NCBI GenBank assembly: GCA_046497465.1
Contig: JAWOFO010000035.1
Coordinates: 1,074-65,073, forward strand
DNA length: 64,000 nt
Origin: Desulfobia sp.
GTDB taxonomy: Bacteria > Desulfobacterota > Desulfobulbia > Desulfobulbales > SURF-16
Direction of reading: 5' to 3'
A program made the position numbers and the translations under genes. The notes beneath the pieces were generated by a model. The model did no database searches and was not told the origin of the DNA. It saw only the letters and a list, made by a program, of their open reading frames with translations. Below are positions 11,869 to 29,163 of the stretch, one piece after another (positions within the stretch are counted from its first letter, which is position 1; the number at the start of each line of letters is the position of its first letter).

Positions 11869-13719
11869 TTAATTTCCCAGTACTCCTCTGATAAAATCAT
11901 TGACCACTTCTTCCGGGCTAGCTTGTTTCTCTGAATCACCCTTTTCCTGCTTATCCTGATCGGAGACTCTGTCAATTTCCTTACCGGCCCTGTCCTTGAT
12001 CGTGTCTGCCAGCCTCTCTTCGATTTTCTGATGGGCGGCAGCAGTATATGGAGAGACCTCGGGACTGGTGAGACTGCCGGTCAGGTAAAGTTTGAATTTT
12101 GCCGCTCCATCTTTCTGCACCATGTATTTGCTTAAAGATGTTTTTAATTCCAGTCTGCTGGACAACTCCGGAGCAAAATTAAGCTCCAGGGGCGCGGCCA
12201 GTTCACCATCCAGCCCGATTATCCCCTCACTGTCAATACCTAACTGTTCACTGTCTAAAGAAGCCCTAAACAGGACGTCTCCGTTTTTTATCCGAAAATT
12301 ACCGCTTAATTCTTCATAATAGATATCTTCGAGTCTTTTTTCCTGAAACAAGGTGGCAATAGCGGCAAGGATTTCCACCTGATGGATCCTGCCCTCCAGA
12401 AGTTTATAGGTTCCCTGGCCATTCAGGGCGTCAGCTAAGGCAGGCCATTGAAAGCCGGTTCCGTGAAAACCAAAGTCTACGGTCAGGTTTCCGGAAATAC
12501 GTTCTCCGGTCTTCGGAAAAAGGCCTCTCTGCAAGGGGGCGAGCTGCATCCCCCGGATGGCAAGAGTCACGTTATAATCAGGCTCAAGTTTATCCAGATC
12601 AACAGCAGCTTGACCGGCAATCCGCCCTTCCGCGGTATAAGCTGAAAGATCGTTCAGGTACAACATATTGCGGCGCAGCTCATAATCAAGCCGAAGATCG
12701 TTGATCCAGAGATTACTGTATTCTGCTTTGGTCACCCTGACCTCTCCTTGGGCCTTGATCCCTTCAGGCAGTCCTGCCCCTATGGATTGACCGATGTTTT
12801 TATCAGCTCGATTGCCGCCATTGCTCCTGTCGGCTACTTTATCTTTCTTTTTATCAACAGACCCCAAATCTGCCAAAAAGCAATCGAGATTCAGAGAACG
12901 GCTGTCCAAATTACAGGTGATATCCGGAGACACCAGATAGTCTTTGACTGTACCATACAGGCACATCTTCTGACCTCCGGCTTCTGACCTCTGGTCCTCC
13001 ACCTGGAGATCGAAACTGAAATCAGCCTTATTCCGATCAAAACTGATACCGCCTTCCAGGGCGGTTTCAACAGCTTCACAAAGGACCTCGGCACTTATAT
13101 CCAACCTGCCCCTGTATTCCAGGGATGCCAGATCCCGGCCGGCTGCCAGACTGACACTGCAATCAGCAGCAGCCGTAACCGCCGGAATCTCTTTAAGTTC
13201 ATCGCGCACAATTAAATCAGCCCTGTTTATTCTTATTTCGCTTACGGCCAAAGCAAAGGGAAAGGCCGCGTCTGCTGAGCCGGGAGAAGATTCAATGCTT
13301 CCGGTTTTCTTTTCTGCCACAGTGGATGTCAATGGTTTCAGGGTCTCAAAATTAAATTTACCACTGGCATAACGAACCACCTTTATTCGCGGTTTGCTCA
13401 AGACAACCTGGCTTATTTTTAATTTTTTCTTTAAAAGCGGTAGGAGGTCATAGCTGAGATTAAAACTCTCTGCCTTTATAAATTCATCCTGTCCATCAGC
13501 TTCCATGATTGCAAAGTTTTTAAGGGTTAACCCTTTCCACAGGCTGATCTGAATATCCCCAAGCCTGACCTCTCTGGCCAAGGCGTTTTCCATCTTGGGA
13601 ACTACCAGTTCCTTGATACGTTTATCAGTCAGGTAATAATGGACAAAAACTGACAGGCCTGCTGTTATTAATAAAATAACGCCAATAATTGCGGCCAGTA
13701 TCTTAAATACCGTCTTCAT
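11869..13719 (-). CDS. AsmA-family protein
   Basis: N-terminal TM, beta-rich body, GKFNF, LTGSLTSPEV. Confidence 0.82.
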   Translation of the reverse strand: MKTVFKILAAIIGVILLITAGLSVFVHYYLTDKRIKELVVPKMENALAREVRLGDIQISLWKGLTLKNFAIMEADGQDEFIKAESFNLSYDLLPLLKKKLKISQVVLSKPRIKVVRYASGKFNFETLKPLTSTVAEKKTGSIESSPGSADAAFPFALAVSEIRINRADLIVRDELKEIPAVTAAADCSVSLAAGRDLASLEYRGRLDISAEVLCEAVETALEGGISFDRNKADFSFDLQVEDQRSEAGGQKMCLYGTVKDYLVSPDITCNLDSRSLNLDCFLADLGSVDKKKDKVADRSNGGNRADKNIGQSIGAGLPEGIKAQGEVRVTKAEYSNLWINDLRLDYELRRNMLYLNDLSAYTAEGRIAGQAAVDLDKLEPDYNVTLAIRGMQLAPLQRGLFPKTGERISGNLTVDFGFHGTGFQWPALADALNGQGTYKLLEGRIHQVEILAAIATLFQEKRLEDIYYEELSGNFRIKNGDVLFRASLDSEQLGIDSEGIIGLDGELAAPLELNFAPELSSRLELKTSLSKYMVQKDGAAKFKLYLTGSLTSPEVSPYTAAAHQKIEERLADTIKDRAGKEIDRVSDQDKQEKGDSEKQASPEEVVNDFIRGVLGN

Positions 13720-18319: not shown

Positions 18320-18334
18320 AGGAGATAAAATATA

Positions 18335-18565
18335 ATGCCGATCTATGAATTTCAATGTCAGAAATGTAAAAAAATTTTTGAAACCCTGTTGCTCAGTTCC
18401 TCGCCAGAGGCAAAGGCAAAAATCAGGTGTCCGGACTGTTCCAGCCGGGAGGTAAAAAAAGCAATTTCAGCTACAAACATTGGATCTTCATCCGCTTCTC
18501 CCTCCTTATCCGGGATGCCGTCAATTGGGAACTGTAATCCAGGCTCTGGTTTTTCCTGAGCCTAA
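18335..18565 (+). CDS. FmdB-family zinc-ribbon protein, probably ending in Sec-Ala (ends at 18559 if UGA is a stop)
   Basis: MPIYEFQCQKC..CPDCSS; TGA GCC TAA followed by SECIS-like hairpin. Confidence 0.85.
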
Positions 18566-18572
18566 AAACATA

Positions 18573-18589
18573 CCGGCCGGTCCGGCCGG
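18573..18589 (+). promoter_or_regulatory. Candidate bacterial SECIS element
   Basis: CCGGCC-GGTCC-GGCCGG; loop starts 19 nt after UGA and carries GGUC as in the fdhF SECIS. Confidence 0.55.
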
Positions 18590-18926
18590 ATAACTGTAAA
18601 AACAGAAAGACTGATTTTTTATTTTTTTCGGTAATTTTTTCGGTAATCGTAGTCCCTATACAGACATTATACTAGGCCACCTTGAACACTGGCTGGAGGA
18701 TGATCCCGAAATCATCGCCCTGATCAACAGGCTGCCTCCCATCAAACGGAAAAACATCTGCGCGCAATAGCCGTAATATTTTTTGCCTTTTTCACATAGA
18801 CATAGAGCAATACATATATATATATAACTGGTCGTTTATTGTGGAGCTATATCTGCGCTGCCCGGCTGCTGCCTTTTTTAAAGAAGAAAACGTAAGCCCG
18901 TTTTTTCGGGTTCAGGTCCTAATGAT

Positions 18927-19695: not shown

Positions 19696-19845
19696 ATGGA
19701 TAAAGACAAAGAATTTTTAAAGGCGGCTTTTTATTTCCATGGTCATATATGCTGGGCCAGCACGGCTGGAGTACGAGCTGGACTGGCGGCGTTGAGACAA
19801 ATGGGAGTTCAGAGAACAGGGACCTCGGGAGAACTTCACTGTTAA
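19696..19845 (+). pseudogene. Truncated FmdE-family protein (49 aa)
   Basis: MDKDKEFLKAAFYFHGHICWASTAGVRAGLAALRQMG...; FHGHxC motif then stop; not in ORF track. Confidence 0.65.
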
Positions 19846-27723: not shown

Positions 27724-29163
27724 TCAGCTCGGCAAAACACGGATCAGACTCTCCGCCATTGCCTCAAGTTCGTTATCACTTACCGTCCTCATATCAAAGA
27801 GCATCCGGTCGTGTTCCACCCGGCCGATCACCGGCAGGGGGGCCTTTCGTAAGCCGGACTCCAGCTTGCTAATCTTCATAAAAGAAGGGGTCAGGGCCAG
27901 GGCCCTGCTCGCCAGCCCCTGTTCGGGCAAAGCCCCGCCTCCGACCCGGGACTGGACCGCCGCTATTTCCAGCCGGCAGTATGGTTCAAGTTTTTCCCGA
28001 ACCATTTCCAGCAGGTATCGGACCCGCTCCTCTATTTTTTCCAGCGGCATTCTCATCATGGCCAGGGTAGGAATCAACTCTTCAGCCCTTTTCCCGTCAA
28101 AGTAAAGGCGAAAGACAGACTCCAGGCCGGCCAGGGTAAACTTGTCAATTCTTAGGGCCCGGTTCAGGGGATTGGATTTGATCTTTTCGATAATCCTCTT
28201 TCGACCCAAAATCAAACCGGCCTGGGGGCCGCCCAGGAGTTTATCACCGCTGAAGGTCACCACATCAACACCTTCCCGGATTGCATCCTGTACGGTGGGC
28301 TCGCTTTCCAAGCCGTAACTGGACAAATCAACCAGACAGCCGCTGCCCAGATCCTCCACAACCAAAAGACCGCGTCTGGCCCCAAGCTCCACCATCTCCC
28401 GCAAGGGGACCTCGGAAGTGAAACCGATTATCCTATAATTACTCATATGGACCTTGAGAAGCAGGGCAGTATTTTCATTAATCGCCTCCTCATAATCCTG
28501 TAAATGGGTACGGTTGGTGGTCCCCACTTCCACCAGACGGCCACCGCTCTTCCGCATTACTTCCGGAATCCGGAAGGAACCGCCTATTTCTACAAGCTGG
28601 CCCCGGGAGACAATAACCTCGCGGTCTTTGGCCAGGGTATCCAGGACCAGGAGGACTGCGGCGGCATTGTTGTTAACCACCAGGCCGGCTTCAGCCCCGG
28701 TAAGTCCGCAGACCAAATCCTCCACCAGGGAATAACGGCTGCCTCTCTTGCCGGTAGCCAGATCAAACTCAAGGTTGGAATAACCTTTTCCCACCCTGTC
28801 TATATAAGCCATAGACTCTTCAGGAAGAAGAGAACGTCCCATATTGGTATGAATAATAACCCCCGTAGCATTTACTACATTACGAAAATTAGGGGTCTGT
28901 TTTTCAGACAGCCGGTTTTCAAATTTAGGGATCAGGGCCCGCCTTTCCAGGTCAGCAGGACAACGCAACTCCCCATTGATTATGGCCCGCCGCTCCTCAG
29001 CCAGCACCTCCTGGACCGCAGCTTTAACAAATGCCTGCGGCGCTCCGGTCATCCCTTCCACCCAGCTCAGAAACTCATCAACCCCGGGGATACTCCGCAG
29101 CAGCTCCTTTATCTCTGCTGAATAGGATTTCTTATTTTCAATCATAAGCAAAGTTTCCCTCAT
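27724..29163 (-). CDS. selA: L-seryl-tRNA(Sec) selenium transferase
   Basis: NATGVIIHTNMGR, NNNAAA, SRGQLVEIGGSFRIP, FSGDKLLGGPQAG. Confidence 0.96.
   Translation of the reverse strand: MRETLLMIENKKSYSAEIKELLRSIPGVDEFLSWVEGMTGAPQAFVKAAVQEVLAEERRAIINGELRCPADLERRALIPKFENRLSEKQTPNFRNVVNATGVIIHTNMGRSLLPEESMAYIDRVGKGYSNLEFDLATGKRGSRYSLVEDLVCGLTGAEAGLVVNNNAAAVLLVLDTLAKDREVIVSRGQLVEIGGSFRIPEVMRKSGGRLVEVGTTNRTHLQDYEEAINENTALLLKVHMSNYRIIGFTSEVPLREMVELGARRGLLVVEDLGSGCLVDLSSYGLESEPTVQDAIREGVDVVTFSGDKLLGGPQAGLILGRKRIIEKIKSNPLNRALRIDKFTLAGLESVFRLYFDGKRAEELIPTLAMMRMPLEKIEERVRYLLEMVREKLEPYCRLEIAAVQSRVGGGALPEQGLASRALALTPSFMKISKLESGLRKAPLPVIGRVEHDRMLFDMRTVSDNELEAMAESLIRVLPS

Follow-up and report, generated by a model that had tools for sequence, protein, structure and literature searches.

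This locus raises the question of whether the TGA at 18557-18559 (+), which closes a short open reading frame in the window (the whole 64,000-nucleotide stretch of DNA that was analysed), is a genuine stop codon or is read as selenocysteine (Sec). The frame, taken directly from the sequence and from the list of open reading frames, occupied 18335-18559 (+) and had 74 sense codons, the last three of which were GGT TTT TCC (G-F-S). A Shine-Dalgarno-like AGGAG at 18320-18324 (+), also read directly from the sequence, lay 10 nt ahead of the ATG at 18335. An earlier note on this DNA had described the end of the frame as ...GNCNPGSGFS-TGA-GCC-TAA, followed by a palindrome whose loop begins 19 nt past the UGA, and this arrangement was confirmed. 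If the UGA were decoded as Sec75, the GCC at 18560-18562 would specify Ala76 and the TAA at 18563-18565 would be the true stop (together 18560-18565, +). The coding sequence would then span 18335-18565 (+), with 76 codons (74 standard, Sec75 and Ala76) and the TAA, and translation with TGA as U gives a product ending ...GNCNPGSGFS-U-A. The sequence comparisons make it very probable that this TGA is read as Sec and that the gene encodes a 76-residue zinc-ribbon selenoprotein of the FmdB family.

The protein was assigned to that family (TIGR02605 / PF09723) on two grounds, 1) the frame scored above the curated cut-offs of both models (PF09723, 51.3 bits, cut-off 34.4; TIGR02605, 52 bits, cut-off 31.3) and 2) it has two N-terminal CxxC pairs. 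Residues 1-44 (18335-18466, +) comprise the FmdB-type zinc ribbon with Cys8, Cys11, Cys32 and Cys35, while the alignment and an AlphaFold2 model delimited a Ser/Gly-rich linker and a conserved tail, G-x-C67-x4-G72-F73-S74, at 18467-18556 (+). In the model, which was computed from an alignment of 30 sequences, the zinc ribbon was confident (pLDDT 77-89, residues 1-40), the C-terminal tail had low confidence (pLDDT 44-59) and no docking of the tail was seen. As modeled, the linker and tail are probably a flexible arm. Two ordinary paralogues of FmdB were also present in the genome, of which the first had a Cys-rich end followed by TAA and the second a Lys-rich tail.

Alternatively, the TGA could be a real stop that yields a 74-residue protein. 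In that case the hairpin would be an RNA-stability element or a terminator, possibly bidirectional or acting on the minus strand, and the conserved bases would be part of the RNA element. Such a reading, which must be considered quite improbable in light of the evidence given below, agrees with the gene callers and GenBank, both of which end the protein at GFS. The earlier note had anticipated that standard gene calling would miss the extension, and the public entries do stop at ...GFS, under names such as 'zinc ribbon domain-containing protein' and 'putative FmdB family regulatory protein'.

The UGA and the codons behind it in orthologous genes

A six-frame search found the FmdB gene in 60 of the 61 genomes of the window's order, and 30 loci were retrieved, some from the window's genus and family and others from several further families of the order. 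All 30 open reading frames ended ...G-C-x5-G-F-S TGA, followed by a short extension, a stop codon and a hairpin. The extension was a single codon in 29 loci and two codons in the other; GCA was found in 16 loci, GCT in 6, GCC in 3, GCG in 3, GCC-TCT in 1 and AAA in 1. The second stop was TAA in 14, TGA in 13 and TAG in 3. In the read-through alignment of these 30 sequences, C8, C11, C32, C35, C67, G72, F73, S74 and the Sec column were invariant and Ala76 was nearly so. The Ser codon directly ahead of the UGA (18554-18556; loci L006-L034) was TCC in 29 of the 30 loci, and the preceding Gly and Phe codons varied freely; the fixed TCC may represent a context requirement of recoding.

A scan directed outside the order, with one genome per species, provided 80 named loci that were grouped by their protein tail alone, after which the stops were counted. 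At each of the 24 loci with an xF[STGKR] tail the first stop was TGA, the next one came 1-3 codons later and a hairpin was present. In contig coordinates and sequence, five of the 24 were identical to loci from the order, which left 19 new ones, and the union consisted of 49 non-redundant loci of the tail type (30 from the order and 19 named). The named records with this tail were titled as sulfate reducers and Acidobacteria; the one at locus L111 bears the title Desulforhopalus vacuolatus DSM 9700 and has a tail that reads ...GGGGGFT-TGA-AGK.

The in-frame UGA was conserved in all of the orthologues, 30 of 30 in the order and 49 of 49 overall, although the latter count overstates the number of independent events because the loci are related and not independent. 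An invariant first stop is difficult to reconcile with ordinary termination, given that the later stop, which was in frame 1-3 codons on at all 49 loci, was of all three kinds (TGA 24, TAA 21, TAG 4). The position after the TGA also argues against a real stop, since it varied only at the wobble base, with Ala in 45 of the 49 loci encoded by all four codons (GCA 19, GCC 12, GCT 10, GCG 4). Because GCN was free only at the wobble position and an in-frame stop of any kind was obligatory, the stretch behind the UGA looks translated and does not resemble an RNA motif. The Cys-to-Sec spacing was C-x7-U in 43 of the 49 loci. The comparison thus supports the proposal in the earlier note of a C-x7-U-A tail with penultimate Sec and a SECIS in the 3' untranslated region (TGA and hairpin in 49/49, Ala in 45/49). 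The pattern that the note had named as contrary to its claim, homologues that freely use TAA or TAG and lack the hairpin, was not encountered, as all 49 loci had both the TGA and the hairpin.

The background frequencies of these features were obtained from 1027 open reading frames of the window's genome with at least 300 codons, which ended in TAA (47%), TGA (35%) or TAG (18%). A second in-frame stop one codon behind the first (TGA-NNN-stop) occurred in only 25 of the 357 frames ending in TGA, compared with a stop within 1-3 codons at every FmdB locus of the tail type, a further point against a real stop, and TGA-GCN-stop occurred in none of the 357. A G+C-rich hairpin of at least 6 bp with its loop 15-22 nt past the stop followed 11 of the 1027 frames. 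The FmdB pattern of TGA, Ala, stop and hairpin exceeds chance.

FmdB genes with Cys-rich CxxC...CxxC ends served as a control. Their stops were mixed (TGA 16, TAA 7 and TAG 3 of 26), and a hairpin of at least 5 bp was found at 8 of the 26 loci, with four or more G-C pairs in 3 of those 8. In a group of 21 loci with a single Cys, 12 had a second TGA-tailed form of FmdB, ...C-x(4-6)-G-TGA, in which 2-6 codons separated the TGA from the next stop, and a hairpin was present in 11 of the 12. The record titles for this second type (loci L068, L074, L089, L090, L091, L098, L104, L105, L114, L115, L118 and L119) were Anaerolineae/Chloroflexota, Holophagae, Desulfurobacterium and Desulfobacterales.

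Selenoprotein families are customarily recognized by homologues that carry Cys in place of Sec. When a profile built from the 30 read-through sequences was run against 1.84 billion representatives, 12,448 matched at E <= 0.001 and 399 of these at E <= 1e-10. Among the best 150 of the 12,448 cluster representatives (50% identity), 78 ended in GFS and 104 in xF[STGKR], and none continued with Cys (F[STG]C...). A word search for the tail, including ...GFSCA, in 5.8 billion clusters gave 8 candidates, all of which ended in GFS, none being a Cys form. A Cys homologue at the Sec position was thus not found in these searches, and the customary Sec/Cys pairing was not established for this family. The alignment of homologues suggested in the earlier note bore out the conserved TGA, short extension and hairpin.

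The same searches bear on another explanation, namely that the UGA is read through without Sec by a near-cognate or suppressor tRNA that inserts Trp, Cys or Gly, and that the hairpin merely slows termination. Read-through of stop codons stimulated by a downstream structure exists in other systems, and the coding signature behind the TGA would fit this mechanism equally well. However, if any residue sufficed, TGG or TGC would be expected somewhere, yet neither occurred at the 49 loci or in the best 150 representatives. This observation, together with the resemblance of the hairpin to other SECIS elements of the genome and the distribution of the Sec machinery considered in the next section, makes insertion of a residue other than Sec highly improbable.

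The genomic context of the gene was also compared, using the largest flanking open reading frames at 20 of the 30 order loci. There was no conserved operon among the 20; the neighbours differed and gave no functional lead, so the FmdB gene appears to stand alone. The neighbours in the window were VanZ and TauE, while a SEC-C-motif protein was the neighbour at three other loci, two of them in congeners with sucrose synthase beside it. A 49-residue open reading frame at 19696-19845 (+) in the window matched only the first 30 positions of FmdE (PF02663, 26.9 bits). Its end, checked for a hidden TGA, was a non-TGA stop, and the fragment looks like a gene remnant.

The hairpin behind the UGA and the selenocysteine machinery

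The hairpin in the 3' untranslated region of the proposed gene lies at 18573-18589 (+) and has the sequence CCGGCCGG-T-CCGGCCGG. The form preferred by RNAfold had a 7-bp stem composed entirely of G+C and an apical loop GUC located 20 nt past the UGA, while an alternative form had a 6-bp stem and the loop GGTCC starting at 18579, 19 nt past the A of the UGA. For the surrounding 96-nt stretch the folding energy was -23.8 kcal/mol, with a z of -2.15; among 200 shuffled sequences, 4 folded equally well. The possibility that the palindrome is a repeat element was ruled out because the 17-mer occurs only once in the genome. No SECIS family was detected by Rfam in the window at the gathering thresholds, nor in the segment 18500-18660 at E values up to 10, where all matches were at chance level. 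Elsewhere in the window, 400-495 (+) matched a Group II intron domain (RF00029, 45.9 bits against a gathering threshold of 40).

If the TGA were a real stop, the hairpin might function as a terminator. The bases that follow the stem are ATAACTGTAAAAAC, so the lack of a U-tract claimed in the earlier note was verified, and the terminator scan made no terminator-like plus-strand call at 18573-18589. Some loci are more favorable to a terminator, since a T-run stood behind 5 of the 49 hairpins, although the other 44 had none. At several loci a separate hairpin with a T-run was located further downstream, which also speaks against the first hairpin as the terminator. In the window, a weak A/U hairpin with a T-rich run, GATTTTTTATTTTTTTCGG, was found at 18592-18632 (+) as the second hairpin in the RNAfold structure; it was not called by the terminator scan and is a possible site of the real transcript end. 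On the minus strand, the palindrome (18589-18573) is followed by TATGTTTTTA and was called terminator-like. This call, and a convergent downstream neighbour in about half of the 20 loci (an acetyl-CoA hydrolase/GNAT gene adjoined FmdB in 9 of the 20), would suit a terminator serving the opposite strand, but no minus-strand gene ends beside the hairpin in the window.

The hairpins of the orthologues are more consistent with a SECIS. RNAfold predicted a hairpin just behind the stop in each of the 30 order loci, and one was present at all 49 loci of the tail type. These hairpins comprised 43 distinct sequences, and at each of six positions in the stem 3-5 types of base pair occurred. In 48 of the 49 the loop began 17-22 nt past the UGA, the outlier being an alternative pairing of a GGUC hairpin, and the loop sequences were GUC in 12, GGUC in 6, GUU in 5, GGUCA in 5, GGU in 4 and similar in others. 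Within the genus, two stem pairs differed on both sides (CCGGCCG/CGGCCGG vs CTGACCG/CGGTCAG). The pairs were counted on hairpin-anchored sequences with a custom finder that by its design picks stems that pair, and for this reason the fraction of paired positions is no test; the test is the constant place and loop against diverse stems, together with the background rate. When the 48 nt behind the UGA were aligned with MAFFT and folded with RNAalifold, no consensus structure emerged, since loop lengths between 3 and 5 nt shifted the 3' arms against one another.

A scan of the genome for TGA followed by a SECIS-like hairpin recovered known selenoprotein genes. Three FdhA-like formate dehydrogenase genes (CARL-TGA-HAPT) had the loops GUC, GUU and GUC, which started 19 nt past the UGA, and the core of one of these hairpins, GGCCAGTTTGGCC, was common to two of the FmdB orthologues. 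Two HdrA-like genes (NDCSM-TGA-IL) had the loop AGGU at 22 nt. Judged by sequence, the FmdB hairpin is of the same make as the FdhA and HdrA SECIS of this genome in size, G/U loop and distance, a similarity that argues against read-through without Sec. The custom scan placed 3' of the UGA a stem-loop whose apical loop contains G and which lies as far from the UGA as a SECIS would, an element for which Rfam had no match. Long frames broken by a TGA with SECIS-like hairpins were also seen on contig C66 (-) near 12995, which reads ...IPLYHG-TGA-GGTISSDEV..., and on contig C8 (+) near 28127, which reads ...WLNTE-TGA-GHEMY... and adjoins HdrA-like selenoprotein genes.

The earlier note had reported selA in the window, and the gene was located at 27745-29100 (-) with a score of 606.7 bits (cut-off 267.9), 9 kb from the FmdB gene and not adjacent to it. 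Elsewhere in the genome, selB (341.8 bits) and tRNA-Sec (selC, 68.6 bits) were both over their cut-offs. In the assembly, which is 94.9% complete, selD was not found, the best match having 73.4 bits against a cut-off of 125, while both congeners have a selD with its own in-frame TGA. The genome in which selD was not detected still has at least 5 genes with a SECIS-type in-frame TGA.

In the order as a whole, selB was over the cut-off in 56 of the 61 relatives and the remaining five all had selA (four over the cut-off, one partial). The presence of selB or selA in every one of the 61 relatives is a further argument against a read-through that inserts some other residue, but since the whole order uses Sec, there is no negative control within it. 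Outside the order, 8 of 10 genomes with a TGA-tailed FmdB had a selB match over the cut-off compared with 4 of 10 with other FmdB tails, a supportive result from a small sample. The two TGA-tailed genomes below the selB cut-off both had selA, and in one of them selB was split over two contigs.

The proposed tail and its relation to known selenoproteins

In the proposed mechanism, the hairpin at 18573-18589, 13 nt past the UGA, would act as a bacterial SECIS. The complex of SelB, GTP and Sec-tRNA(Sec) would bind the apical G/U loop and deliver Sec in competition with RF2, after which Ala would be appended and translation would end at the TAA. With termination at this codon, the SECIS would lie wholly behind the true stop. 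The product would begin with the four-Cys zinc ribbon, continue with a flexible linker of Ser and Gly and end in the tail Cys67-x7-Sec75-Ala76, in which the Cys67/Sec75 pair on its flexible arm could be a redox center that forms a selenenylsulfide or a metal-binding center.

FmdB selenoproteins are not without precedent. Two sequences, with 807 Cys homologues, were predicted from the metagenome of Global Ocean Sampling (GOS) (Zhang and Gladyshev 2008, PMC2398784), and both a 2022 catalogue (PMC9312934) and a 2026 catalogue of 119 families (PMC13188914) listed FmdB as TIGR02605 with the motif U/CxxU or UxxU, the 2026 one only with Sec inside CxxC. The GOS proteins belong to the same family (TIGR02605 / COG2331 zinc ribbon) and use the same recoding system. 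They differ in that their Sec stands where a CxxC motif of the zinc ribbon would have Cys, while the window type has Cys at all four positions in 30 of 30 sequences, so that a UGA at the CxxC position, and with it membership in the GOS type, was ruled out. Also unlike the GOS type, the window type has its putative Sec in the penultimate position of the tail and a putative SECIS behind the stop, and no Cys form of it was found.

Several bacterial families with a C-terminal Sec appear in the 2026 catalogue (PMC13188914), KCU-star (NF033934), UXX-star 1 and 2 (NF041114, NF041211) and the Cys-Sec-COOH protein SaoC (NF040734). They resemble the window FmdB in having Sec within the last few residues, which leaves no place for the SECIS except at the stop codon or past it, and in being short products that gene callers easily truncate; the protein families themselves are unrelated to FmdB. 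The four models gave no match to the window protein at E values up to 10, and none to a set of 16 read-through variants that came from other lineages, for which the limit was an E value of 0.01. In NCBIfam release 20, TIGR02605 was the only model for the window protein and the 16 variants, and there was no selenoprotein model for the tail type. NF041197 (dual CXXC motif small (seleno)protein, OS_HP3 / hypothetical protein DW) likewise describes a small protein of sulfate reducers with two CxxC pairs and one Sec. Its Sec, unlike that proposed here, lies between the CxxC pairs and the model does not match the FmdB locus. A sub-threshold match to NF041197 was seen at C49:114676-114804 (+) (L035), which reads ...KLTGR-TGA-SNATASCTECG... 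and has a hairpin.

The earlier note had likened the tail to that of mammalian thioredoxin reductase (TrxR). The likeness holds for the architecture, a penultimate Sec with the SECIS behind the stop, and does not extend to homology. In E. coli the engineered bacterial-type SECIS for rat TrxR1, attributed to Arner and colleagues in 1999, reportedly sits behind the stop. Rat TrxR1 with its penultimate Sec was obtained from E. coli only if the construct carried a 17-nt hairpin whose loop is GGUC (PMC3834832). The cassette has the same order as that proposed for the window locus, penultimate Sec, one residue, stop and hairpin. A further likeness of rat TrxR1 to the proposed FmdB tail is that Cys and Sec sit as a pair on a C-terminal arm that is flexible. 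In contrast to the window FmdB, an 8-kDa zinc ribbon with C-x7-U spacing and no flavin domain, the engineered rat enzyme is a man-made construct of a large flavoprotein with a vicinal Cys-Sec (GCUG).

Among eukaryotic proteins, SELENOS and SELENOK have a disordered Gly-rich tail in which Sec is penultimate or near the last residue, and an upstream Cys of SELENOS forms a selenenylsulfide. Both are membrane proteins with a eukaryotic SECIS and are not known to be homologous to FmdB.

The tail-Sec type of FmdB is absent from the 2026 table of 119 families (PMC13188914). No description of it was found in the literature searched, and an earlier description by Haft and Gwadz 2023 or Haft and Tolstoy 2025 is possible. 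From these comparisons, the tail-Sec subfamily of FmdB appears to be new, while its kind, a SECIS- and SelB-dependent protein with a C-terminal Sec, is already known.

A more far-reaching interpretation, which is unlikely in its entirety, is that this is an obligate-Sec family of several phyla in which the disordered Cys-x7-Sec arm is a selenium-dependent switch. With selenium, the 76-residue form would be made with a reactive selenenylsulfide or metal-binding tail, while in its absence RF2 would give a 74-residue form that is inactive or differently active, and the protein would report the selenium or redox status to a partner of the zinc ribbon.

If the UGA is indeed read as Sec, several consequences would follow, 1) small proteins that form a large group of wide occurrence would systematically be annotated two or more residues short and without the probable active residue, 2) a family would be added to the bacterial selenoproteomes that is invisible to the standard search logic, because that logic requires Sec/Cys pairs and conservation on both sides of the UGA while here the extension has 1-3 residues and a Cys form was not found, 3) the locus would be nature's equivalent of the engineered 'Sec-X-stop-SECIS' cassette with which recombinant selenoproteins are produced and 4) the putative reactive C-terminal arm would provide the first clue to what the FmdB family does.
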